Counted from the stretch's first letter, positions 7,650 to 49,001 are shown. The stretch is DNA of 64,000 nt from an uncultured bacterium (GCA_963764045.1 CAVXQW010000007.1:173630-237629); one strand, 5' to 3'. The notes: generated by a model not told the origin, from the letters alone. Numbers and translations are program-made.

Positions 7650-8135
7650 ATGCCGTCGTTCGATGTCGTATCGGTCGTGAACATGCAGGAGGTCGACAAC
7701 GCGGTCAACCAGGCGATCAAGGAGATCGGCCAGCGGTACGACTTCAAGGGGTCGAAGACGGAGATCACCCAGGACAAGGACGGCATCAAGGTTCTGACCG
7801 ACGACGACTTCCGGCTGAAGGCGGTCATCGACGTCCTCCAATCGAAGTTCGTGAAGCGCGGGGTCTCCCTCAAGGCCCTGCAGTACGGGAAGGTGGAGCC
7901 GGCATCCGGCGGTTGCGTCCGCCAGGTGATCACCATCCAGCAGGGGATCTCCACCGAGAAGGGGAAGGAGATCGTCGCCATCATCAAGCAGACGAAGCTG
8001 AAGGTCCAGTCCCAGATCCAGGACGAGCAGGTCCGCGTGACCGGGAAGAACATCGACGACCTCCAGACCGTCATCGGGCTGCTGAAGGGGAAGGACCTCG
8101 GCGTGGAGATGCAGTTCGTCAACCTCCGTCCGTAG
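7650..8135 (+). CDS. yajQ: YajQ family cyclic-di-GMP/nucleotide-binding protein
   Basis: [25 protein letters not shown]...[13 protein letters not shown]...QFVNLR. Confidence 0.95.
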
Positions 8136-8157
8136 GTGCTGCTCGGGGGAGATACCC

Positions 8158-8851
8158 ATGGCGGACGTCCCGTTTTACCGGGAATTGCGGGAAAAGACCG
8201 ACCCCTTGTGGAAGGCGATTTTCCATCACCCCTTCGTGAAAGGGATCGGAGACGGCACCCTGCCGCGGGACCGGTTCGAGTTCTATCTCAAGCAGGATTA
8301 CGTGTACCTGATCGATTTCAGCCGCATCTTCGCGCTGGCCTGCGCGAAATCCCGGACGCTGGCGGACATGGGAATCTTCGCCGCCTTGCTCCACGCCACG
8401 CTCAACACGGAAATGGAGCTCCACCGGAAAACGTGCGCCGCCTTCGGGATCGCGGAGGAGGAACTGGCGAAGACCATCAAGAGTCCGATCACCTCCGCCT
8501 ACACCGATCTGCTGGTGCGGACTGCCTATGAGGGCGGATTCTCCGACATATTGGCGGTGCTGCTGCCGTGCGCGTGCGGGTACGCGGAGATCGGGAAGAG
8601 GCTCGGATCGGAGGGGCTTCCGGAGGACCGGTTTTACCGGGATTGGATCGACACCTACTCCTCTCCGGAATTCCAGGGATTCGCCGATTGGCTCATCGAC
8701 AGGATGAATGAATGCGCCGCCGACGCTTCACGAGCACCGCAAGGAGCACTGGCATCGCCTGTACGAATCGAGTGCCCGCTACGAATACCTCTTCTTCGAC
8801 ATGAGCTGGAAAAAAGAAGGCGTGGCGGCGATCGGCGGGGAGGCGGAATGA
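8158..8851 (+). CDS. tenA: Thiaminase II / TenA, apparent frameshift near 8730
   Basis: HPFV, FYLKQDYVYL, LLPCACGY (catalytic Cys), WIDTYSS. The shifted frame continues SARYEYLFFDMSW and ends at an ATGA overlap with thiD. Confidence 0.85.
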
Positions 8852-22070: not shown

Positions 22071-22124
22071 TAATATATCATTCAAAATTGGTTAGTTGAA
22101 TCACAACATGTAAAGTGGAGGAAC

Positions 22125-23645
22125 ATGATGATGCGAGGACAGCGGGTCAAGAACAAGGCGCTGCGGGAAAAGATCACCTACGCCACGGACGCGGCGGAGC
22201 TGATCAAGAACGGTTACAGGGTCGGCATGAGCGGCTTCACGGGCTCGGGGTACCCGAAGCTCGTCCCCCAGGCGCTCGCCGAGCACATCCTGCGGGAGCA
22301 CAGCAAGGGGGGGAAGTTCCGCATTTCCGTCATGACCGGAGCCTCCACCAGCAGCGAGCTCGACGGGGTGCTGGCGATGGTGGACGGGATCGAGCTGCGG
22401 ATGCCGTACAACTCCGACCCGATCGCGCGGGAGAAGATCAATTACGGGAAGATGGAGTACTTCGACTTCCACCTCGGGGCGGTCGCGCAGTACGTCCAGT
22501 GCGGCTTTTTCGGCGACATCGACCTGGCCATCATCGAGGTCGCCGGGATCACCGCGGACGGGAAGCTGATCCCCTCCACCTCCGTGGGGAACAACCAGGT
22601 CTTCATCGACGCCGCGCGGGAAGTCATCCTCGAGGTGAACAACTACCATCCGATCGAGCTCGAGGGGATGCACGACATCTACGAACCCGGGCTGCCGCCC
22701 AACGTGAAGCCCATCATGATCCTCACGCCGTCCGACCGGATCGGCACGCCGTACCTGACCTGTCCGGCGGAGAAGATCAAGGCGATCGTCGAGACGAACC
22801 AACCCGACCGGACGAACGTCTTCAAGGAGCCGGACCGCGACAGCAAGGCGATCTCGGAGCACATCCTGGACTTCCTGCGCCACGAGGTGGCCAAGGGGCG
22901 GATCCCGAAGAACCTGCTGCCGCTGCAGTCGGGCGTGGGGAACGTCGCGAACGCGGTCCTGTACGGGCTGCTCGACTCCGAGTTCGAGCACATGACCGTC
23001 TACACCGAGGTCATCCAGGACGGGATGCTGGCCCTCATCGACGCGGGGAAGGTCGACTTCGCCTCCTCCACGGCCTTCTCCGTCTCCCCGGAAATGATCG
23101 AGAAGTTCAACAAGAACATCGGGGCCTACAAGGACAAGATCCTCCTGCGGGCCCAGTCCATCAGCAACCACGTGGGAGTCATCAAGCGGCTGGGCGTGAT
23201 CGCGATGAACGGGTGCGTGGAGTTCGACCTGTACGGGAACGTGAACTCCACCCACATCAACGGGACGCGGATCATCAACGGCATCGGCGGCTCCGGCGAC
23301 TTCGCGCGGAACTCCTTCATCTCCATCTTCACCACCTCCTCGGTGGCGGGGAGGAACGGGAGCATCTCCTGCGTCGTGCCGATGGTGTCCCACGTGGACC
23401 ATTGCGAACACGACGTGGACGTGGTCGTCACGGAGCAGGGGCTGGCGGACCTGCGGGGCACCTCGCCCAAGCAGCGCGCCGTCCAGGTCATCGAAAAGTG
23501 CGTCCACCCCGACTACCGGCCGATGCTGAAGGATTACTACCGGCGCGCGCTGGACAGCTCGCCGGGAAAGCACACCCCGCACCTGATCGACGAGGCGTTC
23601 GCGTGGCACCTCCGGTTCCAGCGGACCGGGTCGATGAAAGTGTGA
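22125..23645 (+). CDS. Acetyl-CoA hydrolase/transferase family (succinyl-CoA:acetate CoA-transferase type)
   Basis: SGFTGSGYPK, LQSGVGNVANA, YTEVIQD, EFDLYGNVNSTH, GIGGSGDFARN, VSHVDH. Confidence 0.92.
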   Translation: MMMRGQRVKNKALREKITYATDAAELIKNGYRVGMSGFTGSGYPKLVPQALAEHILREHSKGGKFRISVMTGASTSSELDGVLAMVDGIELRMPYNSDPIAREKINYGKMEYFDFHLGAVAQYVQCGFFGDIDLAIIEVAGITADGKLIPSTSVGNNQVFIDAAREVILEVNNYHPIELEGMHDIYEPGLPPNVKPIMILTPSDRIGTPYLTCPAEKIKAIVETNQPDRTNVFKEPDRDSKAISEHILDFLRHEVAKGRIPKNLLPLQSGVGNVANAVLYGLLDSEFEHMTVYTEVIQDGMLALIDAGKVDFASSTAFSVSPEMIEKFNKNIGAYKDKILLRAQSISNHVGVIKRLGVIAMNGCVEFDLYGNVNSTHINGTRIINGIGGSGDFARNSFISIFTTSSVAGRNGSISCVVPMVSHVDHCEHDVDVVVTEQGLADLRGTSPKQRAVQVIEKCVHPDYRPMLKDYYRRALDSSPGKHTPHLIDEAFAWHLRFQRTGSMKV

Positions 23646-35748: not shown

Positions 35749-36937
35749 ATGACGCTGCTCTCGGGAGTCCGTGTCCTGGACCTTTCGCTCCAGCTGCCGG
35801 GGCCGTTCTGCACGATGATGATGGCGGACTACGGGGCGGACGTCGTGAAGATCGACGAGCCGGAGCCGAGGGCCCGCAACCCGTTCGCGGCCGACGATCC
35901 CGGCACCGGACCGCTCGACCGGTACCTGAACCGCGGGAAGAAGAGCGTCACCCTGAACCTGAAATCCGCCGAGGGGCAGGAGATCTTCCGGAAGATGGCG
36001 GCGACCGCCGATGTCGTCGTGGAAGGGTTCCGCCCGGGGGTGGTGAAGCGCCTCGGCGTGGATTTCGATTCGCTTTCCGCGGCAAACCCGGGGCTGGTGT
36101 ACTGCTCGATCTCCGGATACGGGCAGACGGGGCCGATGCGCGACGTCGCCGGGCACGACGTGAACTACCTCTCTTACGCCGGGGTCCTGGGACTTTCGGG
36201 ACGCCCGGAGGAGCCTCCGGCGCTGCTCCCCGTCCAGGTGGGGGATGTGTACGGCGGGTCGATGATGGCGCTCACCGGGATCCTGATGGCGCTGCTTTCC
36301 CGGCAGCGGACGGGGAAGGGGGCGTGGATCGACATCTCGATGACCGATGGTACGGTCGCGTCGCTGGCGATCCCCGCGTCCAACCTTCTCGGGGGGGGAA
36401 TCCCCCAGGAGCGGGGCTCCCTGCCGCTGGCCGGGATGCTTCCCTGCTACGACACATACCGGTGCGCGGACGGGGCGTATGTGAGCCTCGGGGGGCTGGA
36501 GCCGTGGTTCTGGAAAAAGCTCGTCACCCGCCTGGGGAAGGAAGATTTCCGCGAAAGGCAGTACGCGGTGGGGGAGTCGGCGCGAGGAGGTGCGGAGGGA
36601 TCTCCAGGCGATCTTCCTTGGAAAGACGCGGGACGAATGGATCCGCCACTTCGAGGGGGAGGACGTCTGCATCTCCCCCGTCCTTTCGCTCGACGAAGCG
36701 CTGTCCCACCCCAATACCCTCGCGCGCCGCATGGTCGTGGACGTCGGTTCCCCTCTCGGGGGGACGGAGCGGCAGCTCGGCCTTCCGATCAAGATCGCGG
36801 GGGAGGAAGGGCGCGCTCCCGGGAGGGCGCCCCGCCTCGGGGAACACGACGACCAGGTCCTCGCGGAGCTGGGGTATTCGGGTGACGAAATCGCCGACCT
36901 GCGCGCGAAGGGCGTGATCCGGAAGCGGGGGACGATC
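35749..36937 (+). CDS. CoA-transferase family III (CaiB/BaiF); frameshift near 36590, end approximate
   Basis: RVLDLS..LPGP, DYGADVVKI, LNRGKKS, EGFRPG, YCSISGYGQTGP, GHDVNY, APRLGEH. Confidence 0.9.
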
Positions 36938-38014
36938 ATGACGGACGCGAATATCCTGTCGGTCCTTCGTCCGGACGGTACGGTCGACCCGGTGCACGAT
37001 CCGGGACTGCCCGATCCGGAGATGCTGTCTCTCTACCGGCACATGGTGCTGTTGCGGGCGATCGACGAGAAGGCGATCACCCTTCAGCGCTCCGGCCGGA
37101 TCGGTTTCTTCGTCCCTTCGACCGGCCAGGAGGCGTGTTCGATCGGGGCGGGACACGCCGTGCGCGAAGGGGACTGGATCTTCCCGGCGTACCGGGACCA
37201 CGGGGTGGGGCTGATGCGGGGGTACCCGCTCGCCGCCCTGATCGGCCAGATGGTCGGGAACTCGACGGACGCGACGCGGGGGCGGCAGATGCCGAACCAT
37301 TGGTGCGACCGGTCGATCCGCCTGGTGTCGGTCTCCTCCCCGGTGGCCACGCAACTTCCCCACGCCGTCGGGGCGGCCTACGCGGCGAAGGTGCGCGGGG
37401 AGCGGGTCGCCGTCCTCACCACCTTCGGCGACGGCGGGACCTCCACGGGGGATTTCCACGCTGCGATGAACTTCACCGGGGTCTTCCGGCTGCCGGTGGT
37501 CTTTTTCTGCGAGAACAACCGGTTCGCCATCTCCTATCCGGTGGAGCACCAGACGGCCGCCGGGACGTTGGCGGAGAAGGGCCCGGCGTACGGGCTTCCC
37601 GGTGTCCGCGTCGACGGCAACGACGTGCTGGCGGTCCGCAAGGTGGTCGGAGACGCGATGGACCGCGCGCGGGCCGGGGAGGGGGGCACGCTGATCGAGG
37701 CGCTCACGTATCGAATCGGGCCGCACTCGACCTCCGACGACCCGACCGTCTACCGGTCGGAAGAGGAGGTGGCGACCTGGCGGGGGAAGGACCCGATCCG
37801 ACGGTTCGCCGCGTTCCTCAAAGGGCGGGGCCTGCTCGAGGACCCGGCCGCGGAGGAGGCGGCGATGGAGGCGAAGGAGAACGTGCGCAGGGCGGTCGAG
37901 GCGGCGGAAGGAGCGCCCCCCGTGCCGCTGTCCAGCATGTTCGAGGATGTCTACGCGGAGATCCCGTGGCACCTCGCCGAGCAGCGCGACTCCCTGCTCT
38001 CCGGGAAGGGGTGA
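36938..38014 (+). CDS. 2-oxoacid dehydrogenase E1 alpha subunit (PDH/BCKDH type)
   Basis: GQEA, YRDHG, GDGGTSTGDFHAAMN (TPP motif), ENNRFAIS, HSTSDDPTVYR. Confidence 0.92.
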   Translation: MTDANILSVLRPDGTVDPVHDPGLPDPEMLSLYRHMVLLRAIDEKAITLQRSGRIGFFVPSTGQEACSIGAGHAVREGDWIFPAYRDHGVGLMRGYPLAALIGQMVGNSTDATRGRQMPNHWCDRSIRLVSVSSPVATQLPHAVGAAYAAKVRGERVAVLTTFGDGGTSTGDFHAAMNFTGVFRLPVVFFCENNRFAISYPVEHQTAAGTLAEKGPAYGLPGVRVDGNDVLAVRKVVGDAMDRARAGEGGTLIEALTYRIGPHSTSDDPTVYRSEEEVATWRGKDPIRRFAAFLKGRGLLEDPAAEEAAMEAKENVRRAVEAAEGAPPVPLSSMFEDVYAEIPWHLAEQRDSLLSGKG

Positions 38015-38018
38015 CGCG

Positions 38019-38995
38019 ATGGCCGAAGTGACGCTCATCAAGTGCGATCCACGATGCGCATCGCGACGGAGATGGCGCGGGACCCGTCGGTATGCGTCCT
38101 CGGGGAGGACGTCGGCCGCGACGGCGGGGTCTTCCGGGCGACGGAAGGATTGCTCGGCCGGTTCGGGCCGGAGCGGGTGATCGACACGCCGCTGAACGAG
38201 GTCGGGATCGTCGGGATGGCGATCGGGATGGCGATGAACGGCCTGCGACCGGTCGCCGAGATCGAGTTCTCCGATTTCATCTACCCGGCGTTCGACCAGA
38301 TCGTCTCGGAGATGGCCAAGATGCGGTACCGCTCCGCGGGGCAGTTCACGGCGGCGGTCGTGCTGCGCGCCCCCTCCGGCGGGGGGATCCGGGGCGGGCA
38401 CTACCACTCCCAGAGCCCGGAGACGTACTACATCCACACGGCGGGACTGGTCGTGGTGATGCCGTCGACGCCGGCGGACGCGAAGGGGCTCCTCTCCTCG
38501 GCGATCCGCGGGGAAGACCCGGTGATCTTCCTCGAGCCGAAGTTGCTCTACCGGACCGTGAAGGGGGAGGTGCCGCAGGGGGAGTACCTCGTTCCGCTCG
38601 GGAAGGGGCGGATCGTCCGGCCCGGGACCGACGTAACGCTCATCACGTGGGGGGCGATGGTGCCGGTCGCCGAGAGGACGGCCGCCGCCGCCGCGTCGGA
38701 GGGGGTCGACGTCGAGATCATCGACCCGCGCACCCTGTGGCCGCTGGACATCGCGATGATCGAGGCGTCGGTCAAGCGGACGGGCCGGGCCGTCGTCCTC
38801 CACGAGGCGCCCCGGACATGCGGTTTCGGCGCGGAGATCTCCGCGCTCATCCAGGAACGGTGCTTCCTGCATCTGAAGGCGCCCGTCGCGCGCGTGACGG
38901 GGTTCGACACCCCGTTTCCCTACGCCCTCGAAAAATCGTACCTGCCGGACCCGGAGAGGACGCTGCGGGCGATTCGCGCGTCGATGTCGTTCTGA
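38019..38995 (+). CDS. 2-oxoacid dehydrogenase E1 beta subunit (frameshift near 38040)
   Basis: [49 protein letters not shown]. Confidence 0.92.
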
Positions 38996-39083
38996 TACTT
39001 GTCCTGTAAGGGACGTACCTCTTCCCGAAACGGCGTTTTGTTGTATGATCTGCGAATGTAAATTATTCCCAAGGGAGGAGCCT

Positions 39084-40381
39084 ATGAAAAAGAGGGGGAT
39101 GAACCGACGGGATTTCCTGAAGCTCACGGGGGCCGGTTCCCTGGCCGCGGCGGCGGGGGGGCTGGGCGGCGGCCTGCTCACCCCGAAGTGGGTGTGGGGG
39201 GCCACGCCCTCGGTCAAGGGGCCGATCCGGATCGGCTACCAGGCGATCCTGTCCGGCACGCTCGCCGGGTACGGGGAGTTCCACAAGATGGGCGCGGTCA
39301 TGGCCATCGAGGAGATCAACGCGAAGGGGGGGATCGCCGGGCAGAAGGTCGAGATGGAGTTCCGCGACTCGACCCGAAGCCGGACGACGCGATCAAGAAC
39401 GCCCGCTACTTCGTCGACAGCTGGGGCGCCGACTTCCTCGCCGGCATCGACTCCTCGGGGCAGGCGCTGGCGCTGGCCCCGGTCATGGCCCAGCTCGACC
39501 GGCCCATGATGGTCACCCACGCGGCCACCGAGAAGCTGACCGAGGAGTTCGTCTTCAAGAAGGGGGTCAGGCAGATCTTCCGGAACTGCATGCCCACCTA
39601 CAACGACGGGCACGCGGCGGCCTTCATCGCGAAGGACTTTCCCGCCGTGAAGTGGGCCACGGTGAGCCCCAAGTACGAATACGGCTTCACCTGCTGGAAG
39701 ATGTTCCAGGAGACGCTGACAAGGGCTGAAGCCGTCCGCCCAGTTCGTCGCCGAGTCGTTCGCCCCCTTCGGGACGACGGATTTCCGCTCCCACATCAAC
39801 ACGATCATGGACGCCAAGCCCGACGGGCTCTATTCGACCGAGTGGGCCGGGGAGCTCATCTCCTTCGTGCGAGCAGGGGAAGGAAGCGGGCCTCTTCGAC
39901 AAGGTCAAGTACGTCATGTTCCCGGTCGGGGCCGCCATGGACGTCCTCGAGGGGCTCGGGAAGGACATGCCCGACAACCTCTGGGTCTCGGCCCGGTACT
40001 ACTTCCAGTACCCGAACAACAAGGAGAACAACGACTGGGTGGCGCGCTTCCACAAGCGGTGGGGCCATTACCCGGCGTACGTCTCCGAGACGGCCTATTC
40101 CGCGATCTACGCGTACAAGGCGGCCGTGGAGAAGGCGGGGTCGAAGGACACGAAGGCGGTCATCGCCGCGCTGGAGGGGATGGAGCAGAACTAGCCCGGC
40201 GGGGCACCGGGTCTTCCGGAAAGAGGACCACCAGGCGATCTACGACGTCCCCTGGGGGAAGACGAAGTCCGACCCGAAATACCCGTTCAAGGTCATGGGG
40301 GACATGAAGGTCATCCCGGCGAAAGAGTATTTCAACCGGCCGCCGTTCGAGGGGCCGGGGACGACGCCACCGTTCAAATAA
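39084..40381 (+). CDS. Liv-type ABC substrate-binding protein with twin-arginine signal (about 4 frameshifts)
   Basis: NRRDFLK; LSGTLAGYG, EEINAKGG; segments spread over three frames; TAATG overlap with livH. Confidence 0.85.
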
Positions 40382-41247
40382 TGCAGTCGTACGTTCACGT
40401 GATCCTCGCGGGGCTGTCCAGCGGGATGTTCATCTGGCTCGTGGCCAGCGGGCTGACGCTGATCTTCGGCGTCCTCGGGGTGCTGAACTTCGCCCACGGC
40501 AGTTTCTACATGCTGGGGGCGTACTGCTCCTTCACCGTCCTCAAGTACCTGGGGGCGGGGTTCTGGGCGGGGCTCCTTCTGGGGCCCCTGGCGGTCTGCG
40601 CGGCCGGGTTCGTGGTGGAGCGGTTCTTCCTTCGCCACGTCTACCGGATCGCGCTGCCGTACCAGCTTCTGCTCACGTTCGCGTTCGTCCTGATCTTCGA
40701 CAACCTGGTGAAGATCGTCTGGGGAGGGGGGGCGCTCTCGCCCCCCTCCCTTTCCTTCCTCGGAGGGTCCGTCCCGATCCTGGGGCGGAACTTCCCGGTC
40801 TATAACCTGTTCATCATCGCCGTGGGGCCCGCGGTGGCGCTCCTCCTGTGGGCCCTGCTGGAGAAGACGTGGTACGGGCGGATCATCCGGGCGTCCTCCT
40901 CGGACCGCGAAATGGCGTCCAGCCTTGGCGTGCGGGTCCCGGCCCTCTTCACCGGCGTCTTCGTCTTCGGCACCTGGCTCGGCGCCCTGGGCGGGGGGCT
41001 GGCGGTCCCCTACGTGGGGCTGCTGACCCCCGGCATGGGGGAAACGATCATCATCGAGGCGTTCATCGTCGCCGTGATCGGGGGGCTGGGGAGCCTGAAA
41101 GGCGCGTTCGTCGGGGCCCTGGTGATCGGCGTCCTGTCCGCCTTCGGGACCCGGTTCTTCCCCTCCTTCGACATGGCCCTCACCTTCATCCTGATGGGGG
41201 GAGTCCTGCTGTGGCGGCCGCAGGGGCTCTTCGGCGCGACCCGGTGA
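40381..41247 (+). CDS. livH: Branched-chain-type ABC permease (LivH-like)
   Basis: ASGLTLIFGVLGVLNFAHG, GRIIRA, VIGGLGS. Confidence 0.92.
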   Translation: MQSYVHVILAGLSSGMFIWLVASGLTLIFGVLGVLNFAHGSFYMLGAYCSFTVLKYLGAGFWAGLLLGPLAVCAAGFVVERFFLRHVYRIALPYQLLLTFAFVLIFDNLVKIVWGGGALSPPSLSFLGGSVPILGRNFPVYNLFIIAVGPAVALLLWALLEKTWYGRIIRASSSDREMASSLGVRVPALFTGVFVFGTWLGALGGGLAVPYVGLLTPGMGETIIIEAFIVAVIGGLGSLKGAFVGALVIGVLSAFGTRFFPSFDMALTFILMGGVLLWRPQGLFGATR

Positions 41248-41254
41248 GCGGCCG

Positions 41255-42225
41255 ATGAAGGCGCAGACGCGGAACGCGGTCGCGGCGGCGGTCGTCCTCC
41301 TGGGCCTGTGCGCGGTGCCGTTCCTCGCCGGAAAGTTCGCGATCTACCTCACGATGCGGATCATGCTCCTGGGGATCTTCGCCGTCGGGTACAACCTCCT
41401 CCTGGGGCAGACGGGGCTCCTCTCCTTCGGGCACGGCGCGTTCTACGCCGCCGGCGCCTACGGGCTCGGGCATTTTCGGGGCCCACGTCTCCACCCACCC
41501 CCTTCTCGGGGTGGCGGCGGGGGTCGTCGCGGCGGTCCTCCTCGCGCTCCTGGTCGGCTACCTCTGCGTCCGCCACACGGAGATCTACTTCGCGATGCTG
41601 ACCCTGGCGTGCGGGATGATGGCCTTCTCCTTCTTCTGGAACGCCCGGGAGATCACCGGCGGCGACGACGGGCTGATCGGCATCATGCGCGCCCCCGTCT
41701 CCCTCTTCGGCGGGATCAGCGATCCCGATCGGAAAGGACGAACAGTTCTATTTCTTCGTGCTCTTCTTCTTCGCCCTGAGCGTGTGGGCCGTCCACCGGA
41801 TCCGGCAATCCCCCTTCGGGCTGGCCCTCGCCGGGATCCGGGAGAACGCGCGGCGCAGCGAATTCGCCGGCGTTCCGGTGCGGCGCTACCGCCTGGCCGT
41901 CTTCGTTCTGAGCGGGGCGTTCGCGGGCCTTGCCGGATCGCTGGAAGCGCTCCTGGAGAGCAACGCGCGCCCCTTCATGGCCCACTGGACCCATTCCGCG
42001 GAGCCGGTCCTGGTCAGCCTGCTGGGCGGGCTGTCGTCGCTCACGGGCCCCCTGGTCGGCAGCGCGATCTACATCGCGATGCGCGAGATCATCCAGCGGT
42101 TCACCGAGAACTGGATGCTGGGGTTCGGGATCGTCCTCCTGGTGATCATCATGGGATTCCGCGGCGGGGTCATGGGGACCCTGTCGGCCCTGTTCCGGAA
42201 GGCCGCCGCCCCGGGGGAGGGATAA
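41255..42225 (+). CDS. livM: Branched-chain-type ABC permease (LivM-like), frameshifted
   Basis: LLLGQTGLLSFGHGAFY, IYFAMLTLA, TGGDDG, SPFG..GIREN. Confidence 0.88.
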
Positions 42226-42231
42226 CGCGGG

Positions 42232-43014
42232 ATGGGCGAGCCCCTGCTCACGACGCAAAGGCTGTCGAATCATTTCGGGATGGTCTGCACGGCGCGGGAG
42301 CTCGACCTGCGGTTCGAGCAGGGCGTCCTCACCTCCATCATCGGGCCGAACGGAGCGGGAAAGTCGACGCTGATCAACCTCCTCACGGGGCACCTCCCGG
42401 TGCAGGCCGGGAAGATCCGCTTCCAGGGGCGGGACATCACCCGCCTCCCCATCCACAAGCGGGTCCGCATGGGGATCTGCCGTTCGTTCCAGATCGTCAA
42501 CGTCTTCCCGGAGCTCACCGTCGCGCAGAACGTGATGATCCCGGTGCTGGCGCGGACGGGAAGGTCGTGGAGGCCGATCCGGAGCCTCTCGCGGGAGACC
42601 GCGGCCCTGCGGGAGACGGATGCGATCCTGGAGAAGGTCGCACTGCTTCCGGAACGCGACACGCCCGCCACCGCGCTGTCCCATGGAGACCTTCGCCTTC
42701 TGGAGGTCGGCGTTGCGCTCGCCGCCGCCCCGACGCTGCTGTTTCTCGACGAGCCCACCGCGGGGATGAATCCCGTGGAGCGGGTCCGCCTCCTCGACAA
42801 CATCCGCCAGCTCGCGCGCGAGGGGCGCACCACCTTCGTGGTGGTGGAGCACGACATGGACGTGGTGTTCTCCCTGTCCGAGCGGATCGTCGTCCTCCAC
42901 CGCGGGGAGATCCTCTGCGACGGCACCCCCGCGCAGGTCCGGGCCGACGCGAAGGTGCGCGAAGTGTACCTGGGCGACGACGTGTCCGAACTCTTCAGGT
43001 ACCAGGAGGAGTGA
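42232..43014 (+). CDS. livG: ABC ATP-binding subunit (LivG-like)
   Basis: GPNGAGKS, LSHGD, LDEPTAG, VEHDM. Confidence 0.93.
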   Translation: MGEPLLTTQRLSNHFGMVCTARELDLRFEQGVLTSIIGPNGAGKSTLINLLTGHLPVQAGKIRFQGRDITRLPIHKRVRMGICRSFQIVNVFPELTVAQNVMIPVLARTGRSWRPIRSLSRETAALRETDAILEKVALLPERDTPATALSHGDLRLLEVGVALAAAPTLLFLDEPTAGMNPVERVRLLDNIRQLAREGRTTFVVVEHDMDVVFSLSERIVVLHRGEILCDGTPAQVRADAKVREVYLGDDVSELFRYQEE

Positions 43015-43018
43015 TCCC

Positions 43019-43721
43019 TTGATCCTCGAAGCGGCGAACGTCAATACGTTCTATGGGACGAGCCACATCCTCCAGGATGTTACCCTCTCCGTCGGGGAGG
43101 GGGAGGTGGTCGCCCTGCTGGGCAGGAACGGCGTCGGCAAGACCACGACGCTGAGGTCGATCATGGGGCTTTCCCCGCCGAAGCGGGGGTCGATCCGCCT
43201 GCGCGGGAAGGAGATCGCCGGCCTTCCACCGTACGAGGTCGCCCGCCTCGGGGTGGCGTACGTCCCCGACGATCTGCGGATCTTTCCCGACCTCACCGCG
43301 GAGGAGAACCTGGAGATCGCGCAAAAACTCTCGGGGCGGCAGGGGCACTGGAACCGGGAGCGGGTGTACGAGCTGTTCCCGAAGCTTGTCGGATCTCGCC
43401 TCCGCGAAAGGGATCAACCTGTCGGGTGGAGAGAAGAAGATGCTGGGGATCGGCCGGGCGCTGATGGCGAACCCTTCGCTGATCCTGCTCGACGAGCCGT
43501 CCGAGGGGCTCGCGCCGCTGGTGGTCGCGAACCTGGTGGAAGTGCTCGGTCGCATCCACGCGCAGGGGGTGACGATCCTGCTCGCCGACCAGAACCTGAA
43601 ATTCTGCCGGAAGGTATGCGGCCGGGGATACATCATCGAGAAGGGGGCGGTCCGGTTCGGCGGAGGGATGGAGGAGATCTGGGGGAACGAAGAGGTCATC
43701 CGGAAATACCTGGTGGTGTAA
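43019..43721 (+). CDS. livF: ABC ATP-binding subunit (LivF-like), frameshift near 43390
   Basis: GRNGVGKTT, LSGGE, LLDEPSEGLAP. Confidence 0.9.
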
Positions 43722-43731
43722 GGAGCGCAAC

Positions 43732-44496
43732 GTGGGTGCGGACCTGTTCGACCTGACGGGGAAAACGGCGCTGGTCACCGGCGCATCGAAGGGGTTGGGG
43801 CGCGCCATGGCGCTGGGCCTGGCGAAGGCCGGGTGCGGCCTGGCGCTGTGCGCCCGGGACGCGGGGGGGCTTCGGGAAACCCGCGCGGCGGCCGAGGCGT
43901 TGGGGGTCCGGGCGGAGACGTTCGCGATGGACGTTCTGCGCCGGGAGAGCGTGGCGGAGACGGTCGAAGCGGTCGCCGGCTCGTTCGGCGGGATCGACAT
44001 CCTGGTGAACAACGCCGGGGTGAACGTCCGCAAGACCACCCTCGACCTGTCGGAGGAGGAGTGGGACCGCGTCCTCGACACGAACCTGAAGGGGTACTTT
44101 TTCGTCGCGCAGGCCGTGGCCCCGCACATGATCCGGCGGAAACGGGGGAAGGTCATCCATATCTCCTCGATCTTCGGCGCCGTGGGGATGAACAACCAGC
44201 TCGCGTACGCCTGCAGCAAGGGCGGCATCAACCAGATGACGAAGGTGATGGCGATCGAGTGGGCGCCGCACAACGTCCAGGTGAACGCCATCGGGCCGAC
44301 GTACTTCGAGACCCCCCTGGTGGCGACGCTGCGGGACGACCCGGAGCGGTTCCGGTTCATCAACGAGCGCACGCCGATGGGCCGCTGGGGGCAGCCGGAG
44401 GAGCTCGAGGGGACGGTGGTCTTCCTCGCCTCGAAGGCGTCGGATTTCATCACGGGGCAGACGATCTACGTCGACGGCGGATGGACGATCTGGTGA
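43732..44496 (+). CDS. Short-chain dehydrogenase/reductase (KduD/Gno-like)
   Basis: TGASKGLG, NNAG, YACSKGG, NAIGPTY, DGGW. Confidence 0.9.
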   Translation: MGADLFDLTGKTALVTGASKGLGRAMALGLAKAGCGLALCARDAGGLRETRAAAEALGVRAETFAMDVLRRESVAETVEAVAGSFGGIDILVNNAGVNVRKTTLDLSEEEWDRVLDTNLKGYFFVAQAVAPHMIRRKRGKVIHISSIFGAVGMNNQLAYACSKGGINQMTKVMAIEWAPHNVQVNAIGPTYFETPLVATLRDDPERFRFINERTPMGRWGQPEELEGTVVFLASKASDFITGQTIYVDGGWTIW

Positions 44497-44513
44497 CCGG
44501 CAAAGGAGCTCCC

Positions 44514-45044
44514 ATGGAGGCGATGGAGGCGATCCTGTCCCGCAGGAGCATCCGCCGGTACATGCCGGATCCATTGCCGGAGGAGGCGATCCGGCGGGTC
44601 CTGGAGGCGGGGATGGCCGCTCCGTCCGCGGGGGACGAACGTCCGTGGCACTTCGTGGTGATCACCGACAAGGGAATGCTCGCGGGGATCCCGGGATTTC
44701 ATTCCCTTTCCCGGTTCGTGCCGAACGCGGCGGCGGCGATCCTCGTGTGCGCGGACCTTACCCGTTCGAAATACCCGCCGGCCGATTACTGGGTCCAGGA
44801 CTGTTCCGCCGCGACGCAGAACATCCTGCTGGCCGCCCACGCGACGGGGCTCGGTGCGACCTGGCTCGGCGTGCATCCCGAGAAGGTGCGGATCGACGGT
44901 TTCCGCGCGCTGTGCGGCCTTCCCGAATCGATCGTCCCCTTTTCCCTGGTGTCCCTCGGTTTCCCGGCGGTGCGGAAAGAGAGGGAGGCCCGGTTCGACC
45001 TCTCGAGGGTCCACCGGGAACATTGGGCGGGGATGGAAGTGTGA
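44514..45044 (+). CDS. Nitroreductase-family flavoprotein
   Basis: RRSIRRY, APSAG, QDCSAATQNILLAAHATGLGATWLG. Confidence 0.9.
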   Translation: MEAMEAILSRRSIRRYMPDPLPEEAIRRVLEAGMAAPSAGDERPWHFVVITDKGMLAGIPGFHSLSRFVPNAAAAILVCADLTRSKYPPADYWVQDCSAATQNILLAAHATGLGATWLGVHPEKVRIDGFRALCGLPESIVPFSLVSLGFPAVRKEREARFDLSRVHREHWAGMEV

Positions 45045-46598
45045 TGCTCTCCGTAGACTCAGTTCCGCGCGATCGCCGACATCCCGTACCTCCAGGCGCG
45101 TCAAAGGGGCGGGAAGGCCGCCGTCGTCAGCGACGCGGGGGAGACGTTGTCGTATGCCGCGCTGGACGACCGTTGCCGCAGGTTCGCCGCCTTCCTTCGG
45201 TCCCGCTCTGTCGCTCCGGGGGAACGCGTCGCCCTCCTCCTCCAGAACGTTCCGGAGTTCGTCATCGCGTATTTCGGGGCGATCGCGGCCGGGTGCGTGG
45301 CGGTGCCGGTGAATTACCGGCTTTCCCCTCCCGAAATCGCCTACATCCTGTCGGATTGCGCCGCCTCCGTCGTCGTGACGACCTCGGCGCAGTTCGAAAA
45401 GATCGCCGGACAGGAAGGTGCGCGGGAGGTGGGAAACTGGCTCCTTGTGGATGGCCCGCGGGAAGGATCCGTTCCCTTCGGAAACGCCCTCTCTCCGGAG
45501 CCCATCTCCGCGCCGACGTTGGTGGCTCCCGACGACGTGGCCGTACTCCTGTACACGTCGGGGACCACGGGGTTTCCCAAGGGGGCGATGATCTCCCACC
45601 GGAACACCTTGTTCAACGTCGACTCCTGCCGTGCCACCCTCGGGTACGAGGAGAAGGACGTCGGTCTGATCACACTGCCGCTTTTCCATGTGACGGGGCT
45701 CCACTCCCAGCTGGTGGCCCTCCTGGCGTGCGGCGCGACCGTGGTGCTGCAGAAGGAGTACGACACGGGACAGGTTCTCGAGCGGATCGCCCGGAACCGC
45801 GTCACGGCGCTCTTTTTCGTCCCCGCGATCTACAAGCTGTTCACGCTCCGGAACGACATCGACCGCTTCGACCTCTCGTCGGTGAGGATCGCGGCGTACG
45901 GCGGCGCCCCGATGGCGCCGGAGACGATCGAGGCGCTGAACCGGGTGATGGCCGCCCGGCTCCACAACTGCTACGGGCTGACGGAGTGCTCGTCGCTGGG
46001 GACCGTCCTCCCGTCGGAGTACGCCCTCACCCGGTCCGATTCGGTGGGGCTCCCTGTCCCGGAAACGGAGGCCGAGGTGCGCGGCCCCGACGGGGGGACG
46101 CTTCCGCCCGGGGAGCCCGGGGAGCTGTACCTCCGGGGGCCGCACATCGTGCAGGGGTACTTCGGCGCGCCGGATAAGACGCGGGAAGCGATCGGGGACG
46201 GGTGGCTCAAGACCGGGGACATCGCCCGGATCGACGGGGACGGTTTCGTATACATCCTGGACCGGGCCAAGGACATGATCAACCGGGGCGGGGAGAAGAT
46301 CTACAGCCTCGAGGTGGAGAACGTCCTCTACATGTGCCCGGGGGTTGCGGAAGCGGCGGTGTTCGGCATCCCTCACCCCGTGTTCGGAGAGGTGCCGGCG
46401 GCCCGCCTGGTTCCGTTGCCCGGGGCGACGATCGACCCGGAGAAGATCCGGGCCTTCTGCCGCGCCCGTCTCGCGGACTACAAGGTCCCGGTACAGGTGG
46501 GGATCGCGGATCGGATCCCCCGGAACCCCGGGGGTAAAATATTGAAGAAGGAATTACGGAAAGAGTGGGAGAACCGCTCGCGGGAGGATGTCCGATGA
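45044..46598 (+). CDS. AMP-forming acyl-CoA synthetase (class I adenylate-forming), frameshift near the start
   Basis: YTSGTTGFPKG, YGLTE, TGD, GGEKIY, GKILK. Confidence 0.9.
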
Positions 46599-48043
46599 TG
46601 AACGGCGCGCAATACCTGGAAAGCCTGAAAAAGCGAAAGCCGAGAATTTTCTACCGCGGGAAGCGGCTGGACAGCCCGTATGACCATCCCGCGCTTGCAC
46701 CTCACGTCCGGACCGCGGCGGCGACGTACGACCTGGCGGTGGGCGGGCAGCACGACGAGGTCATGACGGCGACGTCGAACCTGGACGGGGCGAAGATCTC
46801 CCGGTTCACGCACCTGTTCTGGAGCGTGGACGACCTGATCCGGAAGATCGCCATGCTGCGGCTCATCGGGCGGGAGACGGGGACCTGCTTCCAGCGGTGC
46901 GTGGGGCTTGACGCGATCAACGCCCTCTGGTCGGTGACGTACGACGTCGACAAGGCGAAGGGGACGGAGTACCACCAGCGATTCCGGAAGTTCCTGGCAC
47001 GGCTGCAGCGGGAGGACCTCATGTCGGCCGGGGCGATGACCGATCCGAAGGGCGACCGGTCCCTCGCCCCCTGGCAGCAGACCGATCCCGACCTGTACGT
47101 CCACATCGTCGACCGGCGGCCCGACGGTGTCGTGATCCGGGGCGCCAAGACGCATATCACGGGGGCGGCGAACTCCCACGAGATCTTCGTGATGCCCACG
47201 CTCGGGCTTCCGCCGGAGGGGGCCGACTACGCGGTCGCCTGCGCCGTCCCGATCGACGCTCCGGGGCTTTCGCTCGTCTTCGGCCGGCAGAGCAACGACG
47301 AGCGGAAGGAGGAGACCGGCACGATCGACTGCGGCACGGAGTGGGGGGTGGTCGGCGGGGAGAGCACGCTGATCTTCGAGGACGTATTCGTTCCCACCGA
47401 GCGGGTCTTCATGGACGGGGAAGGGGACTTCGCGGGATCGCTCGTCGACCGGTTCTCGGCGTGGCACCGGGCGAACTACGGCGGCTGCAAGGGGGGGAAC
47501 GCCGACGTCCTCCTCGGCGCGACCGCCCTGCTGGCCGAGATCCACGGGACGATCAAGAACAGCATCGTGCGCGACAAGCTCACCGAGATCGTCCACCTCG
47601 TGGAGACGAACTTCGCGGGGGCGATCGGTTCCTCCGCGCTGGGGAAACAGCTCCCCGCGGGGAACTGGCTGGTGGATCCGCTCCTCGCGAACACGGTGAA
47701 GCAGAACGTGACCCGCTTCGTGTACCAGGTGGGGCGGCTCACGCACGACATCGCGGGGGGGCTCCTGTCCACCCTGCCGTCCGACGCCGATTTCCAGAGC
47801 AGCGAGGTGGGCGGCCTGCTGGAGAAATATTTCGCCGGGAAGCAGGGGTTCTCGACGGAGGACAAGCGGAAGCTGTGCCGGTACATCGAGGGGATGACGT
47901 CGGTGTCCACGCTGGTGGAGGCGCTGCACGGGGCCGGCTCCCCGCAGGCGCAGCGGATCGTGATGCTGCGGCAGGCGGACCTGCCGGAGAAGACGCGCCA
48001 GGCGAAGAAGGTGATCGGATCCGGGAGGAAGGATCGCAAATAA
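46595..48043 (+). CDS. abfD: 4-hydroxybutyryl-CoA dehydratase / vinylacetyl-CoA isomerase (FAD, [4Fe-4S])
   Basis: CFQRC, HRANYGGC and EALHGAGSPQAQ match the cluster-ligand and catalytic motifs of AbfD, not HpaB monooxygenases. Confidence 0.82.
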   Translation: MMNGAQYLESLKKRKPRIFYRGKRLDSPYDHPALAPHVRTAAATYDLAVGGQHDEVMTATSNLDGAKISRFTHLFWSVDDLIRKIAMLRLIGRETGTCFQRCVGLDAINALWSVTYDVDKAKGTEYHQRFRKFLARLQREDLMSAGAMTDPKGDRSLAPWQQTDPDLYVHIVDRRPDGVVIRGAKTHITGAANSHEIFVMPTLGLPPEGADYAVACAVPIDAPGLSLVFGRQSNDERKEETGTIDCGTEWGVVGGESTLIFEDVFVPTERVFMDGEGDFAGSLVDRFSAWHRANYGGCKGGNADVLLGATALLAEIHGTIKNSIVRDKLTEIVHLVETNFAGAIGSSALGKQLPAGNWLVDPLLANTVKQNVTRFVYQVGRLTHDIAGGLLSTLPSDADFQSSEVGGLLEKYFAGKQGFSTEDKRKLCRYIEGMTSVSTLVEALHGAGSPQAQRIVMLRQADLPEKTRQAKKVIGSGRKDRK

Positions 48044-48065: not shown

Positions 48066-49001
48066 CTAACCGTCCCGCTTCAACTTCAGCAGCCGGATGA
48101 AATTCGTGTCCCGTTCCCTGATTTTCTCCGGCACGGAGACGTCGGAATACGAATAGATTCCCTTCCCCGTCTTCGTCCCCAGGTTTCCAGCGCGCACCGA
48201 TTCCACCATCCGCTCGGGTGCCGATTCCATCTTGTTCAGCTCGGGAGCCAGGTTGTCGATGACCCGTTTCCACGTGTCCAGTCCGCCGAAATCCGCCGTC
48301 TCGATCGGGCCGATGAAGGCCCAGCGGAAACCTGGCCCGGCCGTGATGGCGGCGTCGATGTCCCGCGCGTCCGCCACCCCTTCGTTCAGAAGGTGGAAGG
48401 CCTCCCGCACGATCGCGGCCTGCAGCCGGTTGGCGATGAAGCCGGGGACTTCCTTCTTCAGGAGGACGGGATGTTTGCCGATCTTCCGCATCAATTCCGT
48501 GGTGGTCTCGACGACCTGCCCGGAGGTCTTCTCGTGTTTCACGATCTCCACCAGCGGCACGAGTTGGGCGGGGTTGAAGAAATGGGTGATGATCATCCGG
48601 TGCGGCGTGGCCGAATGCTTCGCCATCCTCGAGATCGGCAGCGTGGAGGTATTGGAGGCGATGATCGCGTCGGGCTTCGCGATCCGCTCCAGCGTCCCGA
48701 ACAGCTCCCACTTCATCTCCAGGACTTCCGGGATCGCCTCCGTGATGAAATCCGCCTCTTTCACCGCCTCTTCCAGGTCCGTCGTCCGGGAAACCCGCCG
48801 AGGGCTTCCTTCTTCCGCGCCTCGGTGACGAATTTCTCCTTCACAAGAAGGGAGAGGCTGTCTTCCATCGCCCGGAACGCCCTGTCAAGGTAGCTCCTCG
48901 CGAACGTCGTGGAGGGAGACGGGAAACCCGGCAAGCGCATACAGCTGAGCGATCCCGTGGCCCATCACTCCCGCTCCGATAACGGCGACTTTCCTGATCA
49001 T
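48066..49001 (-). CDS. 3-hydroxyacyl-CoA dehydrogenase family protein (frameshifts at 48770-48890)
   Basis: VIGAGVMGHG, EAIPE, ASNTS, HFFNP, GFIANRLQ. Confidence 0.87.

Follow-up and report, generated by a model that had tools for sequence, protein, structure and literature searches.

An importer-linked operon that pairs an AMP-forming acyl-CoA ligase with a 4-hydroxybutyryl-CoA dehydratase homologue in an uncultured wetland bacterium

In the present study, a 64,000-nucleotide stretch of DNA from an uncultured bacterium (GCA_963764045.1 CAVXQW010000007.1:173630-237629), hereafter the window, was analysed around positions 39084-48043, where the genes of an ATP-binding cassette (ABC) importer are followed by those of a short-chain dehydrogenase/reductase (SDR), an AMP-forming acyl-coenzyme A (CoA) ligase and AbfD, a homologue of 4-hydroxybutyryl-CoA dehydratase. 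A reading made from the sequence alone, hereafter the sequence-only reading, had described this region as a co-oriented run in the order solute-binding protein (SBP)-livHMGF-SDR-nitroreductase-ligase-abfD, and both the order and the coordinates were confirmed by Pfam and NCBIfam scans (Table 1). The G+C content is 62-71% across the window (in steps of 2 kb) and raw lists of open reading frames (ORFs) are noisy; the coding frame was therefore followed by third-position G+C and by a codon-phase Viterbi model trained on the genome itself, and genes were identified by the Pfam and NCBIfam scans. Five collinear genes encode a complete importer of the hydrophobic amino acid transporter (HAAT) type, comprising an SBP, two permeases and two ATPases according to their Pfam domains. 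The genes are tightly packed, as had been claimed, with the junctions TAATG, GTGTGATG and CGATGATGA; the start of abfD overlaps the stop of the ligase gene, and abfD is translationally coupled to the AMP-forming ligase. The description of the run as unbroken did not hold, since single-nucleotide indels are present in the SBP gene (four), livM (two) and livF (one).

Table 1. Features of the operon and its immediate neighbours in the window
Feature	Position	Strand	Basis and remarks
Family III (CaiB/BaiF-type) CoA-transferase	35749..36930	+	Context; sub-threshold NCBIfam matches to succinate-glutarate and succinyl-CoA:mesaconate CoA-transferases
E1 alpha, 2-oxoacid dehydrogenase	36935-38014	+	TIGR03181, 415.7 bits (cut-off 411)
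E1 beta, 2-oxoacid dehydrogenase	38042-38995	+	PRK09212, 309 bits, under the cut-off of 321
Periplasmic SBP with twin-arginine translocation (Tat) signal	39084-40381	+	Peripla_BP_6 and TAT_signal; five pieces as assembled
livH-type permease	40381-41247	+	PF02653; intact; best NCBIfam match UrtB-like, under its cut-off
livM-type permease	41255-42225	+	Two 1-nt insertions, ~41472 and ~41718
livG-type ATPase	42232-43014	+	PF00005 and BCA_ABC_TP_C; intact
livF-type ATPase	43019-43721	+	TTG start; one 1-nt insertion, ~43386
Classical SDR oxidoreductase	43732-44496	+	adh_short_C2, 1.3e-66
Nitroreductase-family flavoprotein, 175 aa	44517-45044	+	PF00881; variable insert between SDR and ligase
AMP-forming acyl-CoA ligase (ANL superfamily)	45043..46598 (open frame 45057-46598)	+	AMP-binding and AMP-binding_C
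AbfD homologue ([4Fe-4S]/FAD 4-hydroxybutyryl-CoA dehydratase/vinylacetyl-CoA isomerase type)	46592-48043	+	HpaB_N/HpaB; intact
3-Hydroxyacyl/3-hydroxybutyryl-CoA dehydrogenase	48066..48884	-	PRK08269, 208 bits, profile positions 92-317 only

Conservation of the eight-gene unit

Relatives of the AbfD protein at 92-97% identity were found in metagenome-assembled genomes (MAGs) of Candidatus Deferrimicrobium and the Deferrimicrobiaceae, formerly the MBNT15 group, and the host is a Candidatus Deferrimicrobium-type MAG from an uncultured wetland bacterium. The published genome description of the lineage (Ca. Deferrimicrobium borealis) depicts an organoheterotroph that is facultatively anaerobic; it counts 11 liv clusters, including one linked to a branched-chain 2-oxoacid dehydrogenase operon, and contains no mention of AbfD (PMC9386147). 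A representative genome of the same genus had no match to the AbfD of the window, and the locus is accessory within the genus.

The conserved unit consists of eight genes, SBP-livHMGF-SDR-ligase-AbfD. In locus L025, whose AbfD is 78% identical to that of the window, SBP, livH, livM, livG, livF, SDR, ligase and AbfD form a compact operon between unrelated genes, and the same order is present in Deferrimicrobiaceae MAGs and in a MAG labelled as Anaeromyxobacteraceae (L018). In distant genomes of the same phylum, the unit is collinear in L034, L036 and L037, with identities of ~52% for AbfD, ~45% for the ligase, 63-66% for the SDR and 76-80% for the SBP and LivH; in L028 and L029, a divergent importer lies beside SDR-ligase-AbfD (SDR 67-68%, ligase 36-37% and AbfD 54% identity). 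Other loci show rearranged versions. A family III CoA-transferase and the E1 alpha/beta genes lie between the importer and ligase-AbfD in L016 and L017, with E1 alpha/beta immediately ahead of the ligase gene and the SDR missing, and an AbfD of 77% identity is found in a different operon in L026 (JGI 3300064367, Ga0610037_000049), together with IclR, two AtuA plus AtuA_ferredoxin pairs, a cyclase, a Liv-type importer, an old yellow enzyme (OYE) flavoprotein and two family I CoA-transferase pairs. The L026 locus, with flanking CoA-transferases instead, and the other loci together reveal that the activating enzyme is interchangeable, and that the association of importer, SDR and AbfD persists. 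The literature search found no paper describing this unit, or joining abfD with an acyl-CoA synthetase and an ABC transporter; the importer-linked unit is a conserved yet unstudied gene set.

The nitroreductase, which the sequence-only reading had included in the run, does not belong to the conserved unit, being absent from at least 11 relatives. In L004, L008, L011 and L021, an alignment gap of 543-564 nt falls exactly at this gene; in L002, L006, L007, L014, L018 and L023, the BLAST alignment skips it, and L025 is also without it. Besides the window, only L005 (90% amino acid identity) and L015 carry the gene; in L015, the protein encoded in this slot (7960-8460) shares just 38% identity, against ~90-95% for the flanks. 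The nitroreductase is an accessory, replaceable gene, and this weakens the idea of a built-in redox partner for the dehydratase. As an obligate partner it was rejected owing to its absence in most relatives. A recurrent, non-obligate association with AbfD was nevertheless observed: a nitroreductase of 49-50% identity directly follows a canonical cluster of iron-type alcohol dehydrogenase (Fe-ADH), AbfT CoA-transferase and AbfD in genome G054 of another family (L042:7631-8185), another precedes a distant AbfD paralogue in genome G045, and L052:6084-6851 is among the loci compared in this respect, where chance would give, by a rough estimate, ~0.2 nitroreductase-AbfD adjacencies among ~140 homologues. 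Four of the five closest nitroreductase orthologues in the phylum sample lie in unrelated contexts (M16 peptidase, NMO, DUF6599).

The AbfD subgroup, its partners and the activating enzyme

AbfD of the window matched PF11794 (1.3e-91) and PF03241 (1.1e-53), and aligned over its full length with two solved structures, 1U8V from Clostridium aminobutyricum (3e-143) and 6VJR from Nitrosopumilus maritimus (2e-136). The full motif set that had been attributed to this protein is present: the [4Fe-4S] ligands C99, C103, H292 and C299 (1U8V numbering) are kept in the window protein and in all relatives, and the window protein also carries T190, E257, Y296, K300, E455 and A460. The residues reported as essential are the four cluster ligands together with T190, E257, Y296 and E455, with K300 and A460 not among them (10.1101/2020.02.05.935528). 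In the wider family (322 representatives at E <= 1e-30), only four of the 85 full-length representatives at 50% identity keep the full catalytic set, which the window protein also keeps; judged by these residues, the window protein is therefore placed on the "true AbfD" side of a family otherwise rich in divergent paralogues. Representatives at 50% identity merge the subgroup of the window with canonical clusters, and the size of the subgroup is not resolvable at that level. Most of these 50%-identity representatives are without one or more catalytic residues. Homologues of the AbfD family were present in 49 of the 151 sampled genomes of the phylum, with 1-10 copies each (e.g. G037, G075, G109, G138 and G142).

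A phylogeny in which 1U8V and 6VJR stood for the characterised AbfDs placed the window protein in a separate, well supported clade (SH-like approximate likelihood-ratio test, SH-aLRT, 100), apart from 1U8V and 6VJR, which group with L039-L042. At eight positions in 1U8V numbering, the window clade is marked by H38, A42, I182, N235, E237, an inserted V, N295 and V454, the insertion lying after ~255, and the canonical type, including 1U8V and 6VJR, has S, V, V, C and T at the first five of these, lacks the inserted residue, and has S and T at the last two. This second-type signature is common to the window clade, a second module-linked clade and several other clades, with some variation: A42 is V in one sister group, 237 is acidic or polar, the inserted V is once I, and 454 is V or A. 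The N. maritimus structure has a tunnel behind the cluster that is lined by its Q237 (10.1101/2020.02.05.935528); along the sequence, positions 235 and 237 stand near this residue.

The gene partners also differ between the two types. Two of the six canonical-type loci (L039 and L042, from the same phylum) have an AbfT-type CoA-transferase, and L042 also carries an Fe-ADH. In a small sample, second-type AbfDs are accompanied by a ligase and an SDR, by an acyl-CoA dehydrogenase and a thiolase (L043), or by nothing related. Within the limits of this small sample, the occurrence of the window subgroup with ligase, SDR and importer, and of AbfT beside the canonical subgroup, suggests that the two have diverged in function.

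Among the enzymes of the unit, the SDR is the best conserved, with 63-68% identity in distant genomes where AbfD has 52-54% and the ligase 36-45%. Its nearest families and PDB entries are gluconate-5-dehydrogenase/KduD-like, all under family cut-offs, and it carries TGASKGLG...CARD motifs, which, by the published classification of SDR motifs, we take to suggest a preference for NADP(H). The nearest NCBIfam matches of the SBP are urea- and Leu-binding proteins, far under their cut-offs. When the structure matches of the SBP, the SDR and the ligase were searched for ligand clues, only distant or generic ones were obtained.

The ligase contains PF00501 (2.2e-98) and PF13193 (2.7e-17) domains, passes the cut-off of the generic subfamily NF004837 marginally (481 bits against 476), and has 8WEU/8WEV as its nearest PDB entries (1e-100), annotated as fatty-acyl/feruloyl-CoA synthetases. 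The only gene of the AbfT superfamily (PF13336) in the genome lies within the window, at 22074-23645 on the plus strand, and is of ScpC/YgfH type (TIGR03458, 757 bits; NF053853, 724 bits). An AbfT-type transferase encoded elsewhere in the genome was considered and rejected, as this single PF13336 gene scores as a ScpC-type succinyl-CoA:acetate CoA-transferase. With the sole AbfT-family gene of ScpC type, activation by the ligase, as the sequence-only reading had suggested, is plausible.

Proposed catabolic route and alternatives

Herein, we propose that the operon is catabolic, and that its products import, activate and dehydrate 4-hydroxybutyrate, or a related 4-oxo or 4-hydroxy acid, to crotonyl-CoA, a function that we regard as moderately probable. 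The gene content, the conservation as a unit and the catalytic residues of AbfD are observed directly, and beyond these we infer which substrate is used, what the SDR does and how the steps follow one another. First, the Tat-exported SBP and the LivHMGF-type transporter would import a small carboxylate, with 4-hydroxybutyrate and related 4-oxo/4-hydroxy C4-C5 acids as candidates. Second, the SDR, probably NADP(H)-linked, would interconvert the 4-oxo and 4-hydroxy forms, either as free acid or as CoA ester. Third, the AMP-forming ligase would make the CoA thioester, spending ATP. Fourth, the AbfD-type radical dehydratase, with its [4Fe-4S] cluster and FAD, would eliminate the gamma-hydroxyl, which is unactivated, and so yield crotonyl-CoA (or a 2-enoyl-CoA). 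Finally, the adjacent 3-hydroxyacyl-CoA dehydrogenase, together with crotonases and thiolases encoded elsewhere, would convert this product to acetyl-CoA through beta-oxidation. The core of the earlier proposal, that ligase, AbfD and importer constitute a catabolic route, gains support from the complete catalytic residues of AbfD, from its translational coupling to the ligase and from the recurrence of SBP-livHMGF-SDR-ligase-AbfD in L025 and in remote families within the phylum. The high-affinity scavenging of 4-hydroxybutyrate envisaged in the sequence-only reading is conjectural.

The genomic setting of the last step is as follows. The 3-hydroxyacyl-CoA dehydrogenase gene converges on abfD, ending 22 nt past it; its orthologue in L010 is 93% identical, and the N-terminal part of the window gene is disturbed in the assembly. 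This enzyme is likely to be the downstream enzyme. Crotonase and thiolase genes had been noted as absent from the window, and they are: the nine ECH_1 and four Thiolase_N matches of the genome that pass their family cut-offs are all located outside it. Genes for Fe-ADH, aldehyde dehydrogenase (ALDH) or aldehyde ferredoxin oxidoreductase (AOR) flank the unit in many genomes. The window segment 48066-56665 is variable among relatives; it contains the 3-hydroxyacyl-CoA dehydrogenase, a second Liv importer on the minus strand, and then Fe-ADH and ALDH. In L005, L008, L011 and L015, ALDH directly follows abfD; in L004, a co-oriented second importer lies in between, and L010 has a 2.2-kb insert.

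As in the 4-aminobutyrate fermentation of C. aminobutyricum, the proposed route would use a radical dehydratase of the same [4Fe-4S]/FAD family, with identical cluster ligands and catalytic residues, in the catabolic direction towards crotonyl-CoA. However, abfD of C. aminobutyricum is accompanied by the AbfT CoA-transferase and an Fe-type 4-hydroxybutyrate dehydrogenase, whereas in the window unit an AMP-forming ligase would activate the substrate, an SDR stands in for the Fe-ADH or is added to it, the unit has its own ABC importer and the dehydratase belongs to a separate subgroup. The pairing of a ligase with the dehydratase is the arrangement of the archaeal 4-hydroxybutyrate cycles, namely the dicarboxylate/4-hydroxybutyrate (DC/HB) and 3-hydroxypropionate/4-hydroxybutyrate (HP/HB) cycles (e.g. 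4-hydroxybutyryl-CoA dehydratase, 4HBD, of N. maritimus), with which the window unit shares the synthetase-then-dehydratase logic. The archaeal pair is anabolic, whereas that of the window is part of the uptake operon of a heterotroph; moreover, the window ligase is a generic FadD13/feruloyl-CoA-synthetase-like ANL enzyme, and 6VJR groups with 1U8V and not with the window clade. The importer has the five-component architecture and the Pfam families of HAAT systems (LivJHMGF/Urt), but its SBP and permeases score far under the Leu/Ile/Val and urea equivalog cut-offs, and its SBP has a Tat signal.

Several observations weigh against a simple 4-hydroxybutyrate pathway. First, neither of the crystallised AbfDs (1U8V and 6VJR) falls in the subgroup of the window. 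Second, this subgroup differs from the canonical type at positions 295 and 454, which adjoin the catalytic residues Y296 and E455. Third, plain 4-hydroxybutyrate would not call for an SDR, whereas this enzyme, to which the sequence-only reading had given no role, is conserved above all others of the unit; its conservation suggests that the operon imports something other than just 4-hydroxybutyrate, or else that the pathway cannot do without a redox step. Fourth, the SBP is only weakly similar to solved proteins, the best being 3I45 at 6e-38. We would retain 4-hydroxybutyrate as the default substrate; given the obligatory SDR and the signature of the AbfD subgroup, a 4-oxo or C5 compound is also conceivable.

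The strongest alternative develops this last point, holding that the unit is specific for a 4-oxo or 4-hydroxy acid of five or more carbons, such as levulinate or 4-hydroxyvalerate, which we consider unlikely. The ligase would then form levulinyl-CoA, the SDR would reduce it to 4-hydroxyvaleryl-CoA, like LvaD of Pseudomonas putida, and radical dehydration by AbfD would yield 2-pentenoyl-CoA, replacing the phospho-elimination of LvaABC, a scheme to which we give the same low probability. In the levulinate operon of P. putida, lvaABCDE, an acyl-CoA synthetase and an SDR (LvaD) act on a 4-oxo/4-hydroxy short-chain acid that feeds into beta-oxidation, and the 4-hydroxyl is removed by phosphorylation and an enzyme of the acyl-CoA dehydrogenase (ACAD) type (LvaABC). 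The window unit has neither kinase nor ACAD, and an AbfD-type radical dehydratase would act without ATP. In its broadest form, and with equally slight expectation, the AbfD subgroup (H38/N235/N295/V454, in every case with all catalytic residues) would be a distinct specificity class. With a conserved NADPH-type SDR, an AMP-forming ligase and a dedicated importer, it would let 4-oxo/4-hydroxy acids such as levulinate, 4-hydroxyvalerate or gamma-hydroxy acids of greater length be used anaerobically at a lower cost in ATP, a radical counterpart of the kinase-dependent Lva/ACAD10-type pathway, in which the sporadic nitroreductase would keep the redox state of the dehydratase. An obligatory, highly conserved SDR with motifs suggestive of an NADPH reductase would fit such a substrate, as would the fixed changes at 295 and 454, the further differences at 235 and 237, and, in the small sample, the pairing of the window subgroup with ligase and SDR and of the canonical subgroup with AbfT; moreover, the absence from the literature of any paper tying AbfD to 4-hydroxyvaleryl-CoA does not in itself exclude the idea. 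Against it, all known catalytic residues are unchanged, the fit of a C4 substituent in the pocket lacks structural support, and the Fe-ADH and ALDH neighbours suit C4 chemistry (4-hydroxybutyrate/succinic semialdehyde) at least equally well.

The importer might instead be an ordinary branched-chain amino acid system serving the neighbouring 2-oxoacid dehydrogenase, with ligase-AbfD adjacent and functionally separate, a reading that appears quite improbable to us. The 11 liv clusters of the lineage, with one tied to a branched-chain 2-oxoacid dehydrogenase operon (PMC9386147), lend it some weight, as do the E1 alpha/beta genes preceding the SBP gene and the E2/E3 genes and second E1 pair downstream. 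However, no E1 genes accompany the eight-gene unit of L025 or those of L034, L036 and L037, the SBP and LivH remain 76-80% identical between units though the flanks differ, and the SBP scores far under all Leu/Ile/Val-binding family cut-offs. As to these neighbours themselves, the family III CoA-transferase and E1 alpha/beta genes directly upstream of the operon are syntenic in relatives (L008, L011, L015 and L016). The E1 alpha/beta pair at 36935-38995 has no adjacent E2. The window segment 56822-64000 is dense in 2-oxoacid dehydrogenase genes, with E2 and E3, another E1 alpha/beta pair and another E2 ahead of lipB and lipA.

Frameshifts in the assembly and the carbon metabolism of the lineage

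The proposed import step depends on genes that are interrupted in the assembly. The SBP gene is split into five pieces by a deletion at ~39374 and insertions at ~39720, ~39872 and ~40193 (1 nt each), and its pieces match consecutive stretches of the Peripla_BP_6 profile (1-50, 53-148, 164-213 and 206-312); livM is in three pieces and livF in two. By alignment with five relatives and codon-phase tracking, all seven checked indels were seen in this genome alone; six are insertions and one is a deletion, and none lies inside a homopolymer. At the ligase, there is no in-frame ATG, GTG or TTG between the stop at 45054-45056 and a TTG at 45147, and the coupled ATG at 45043, which overlaps the nitroreductase stop, is in a different frame from the ligase ORF. 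In a comparison of start regions with L005, L015 and L004, the ligases of L004 and L005 start at a coupled in-frame ATG, and an eighth 1-nt insertion within 45046-45062, at the ligase start, is probable from these alignments. Upstream of the operon, the family III CoA-transferase gene has a phase switch at ~36582, and a 474-aa ORF (36590-38014) apparently joins the C-terminus of the CoA-transferase to E1 alpha. Relative to L011 and L008, the window (36860-36940) and L021 share a 58-nt loss of an intergenic hairpin; L021 has an overlapping TCATGA stop/start at the CoA-transferase/E1 alpha junction, and the fusion ORF arises because one extra base in the window (~36921) removes the stop of this TCATGA.

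Such interruptions are common throughout the source MAG (G000; 2.73 Mb, 18 contigs, 75% complete). Using the Viterbi model, with a same-strand frame switch without a stop codon as the definition, 669 frameshift-like junctions were counted genome-wide, or 2.45 per 10 kb, compared with ~0.6 per 10 kb in six Illumina-assembled relatives, and the ratio of such switches to ordinary stop-bearing boundaries was 669:938 in this genome versus 6:62 in the Illumina relatives. More than 12 separate regions of the genome have at least five such junctions inside 4.1 kb. The window itself has 25, often clustered, of which six are in the operon, and the others are at 2075, 3250, 4640, 8708, 13680, 13939, 14106, 17808, 18418, 19033, 19488, 30936, 36582, 49735, 53081, 56162, 57106, 62526 and 63576. 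Many genes of this MAG look split, including those for a second Liv SBP, ALDH, E2 and the family III CoA-transferase. The same genes carry indels in L015, a related MAG from long reads, but these are not the indels of the window, whereas the operon genes are intact throughout in the Illumina relative L004, and all five importer genes are intact in both L004 and L025. The ratios of nonsynonymous to synonymous substitution (dN/dS) against L004 are 0.21 for the SBP gene, 0.14 for livM and 0.21 for livF, and 0.13-0.22 for intact genes. Because the indels are unique to this genome, frameshift-like junctions number ~669 across it and the dN/dS values are normal, the most likely source of the frameshifts in the three importer genes and at the ligase start is the long-read assembly of this MAG, which is prone to indels and would have introduced errors of one base each.

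Gene decay is probably not the cause of these frameshifts, and a real, very recent decay keeps a small probability. In that case, this strain would have pseudogenes in place of an active SBP gene, livM and livF, and only SDR-nitroreductase-ligase-AbfD would be functional, which we judge to be very unlikely. Several features are in its favour: seven indels are packed into 4.1 kb and the region 43.4-48.0 kb is free of them except at the ligase start; the absence of this AbfD from the same-genus representative genome marks the locus as dispensable; and none of the indels is in a homopolymer. Six insertions to one deletion, all outside homopolymers, differ from the classic error pattern of nanopore sequencing, a point against an origin in the assembly. 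The region upstream of the SBP gene also speaks for decay. In relatives (L004:1030-1150, L008 and L011), it contains a conserved intergenic element with a palindrome, perfect in L004 (ATGCATCGATGCAT) and near-identical in L008 and L011, that is likely to be an operator; in the window (38996-39083), 49 nt of this element are gone and an unrelated A+T-rich stretch is present instead, so that the conserved palindrome has been lost by deletion. A search for the sigma-54 motif TGGCAC-N5-TTGCW gave no match near the operon, and the window had fewer matches than expected by chance. Opposed to decay are the similar clusters of junctions in the more than 12 other regions of the genome, the completeness and fragmentation of the MAG, the different indels of L015 in the same genes, and the dN/dS of the broken genes, which is not elevated. 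Bacterial indel bias usually favours deletions, and the 6:1 insertion excess runs in the opposite direction. With hundreds of single-base indels in this assembly, its "broken" or "fused" genes are not to be taken as biology.

The arrangement of ligase and dehydratase, archaeal in character, might also be read as part of an autotrophic CO2-fixation cycle of the DC/HB or HP/HB type. Although AbfD is widely used as a marker of archaeal-type CO2 fixation in wetland and sediment metagenomes, as in wetland surveys (PMC11784365), this reading, judged by genomic context, is highly improbable here: the ligase-AbfD pair forms part of an uptake operon, the locus is accessory within the genus and the lineage is described as organoheterotrophic (PMC9386147). 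The use of this marker is itself affected by the catabolic reading proposed herein: an AbfD with the full catalytic set is found in an uptake operon of heterotrophic Deferrimicrobia and of further bacteria in their phylum, and such genes would inflate estimates of autotrophy. The importer-linked unit could also reflect a new route by which peat anaerobes use gamma-hydroxy or gamma-oxo acids.

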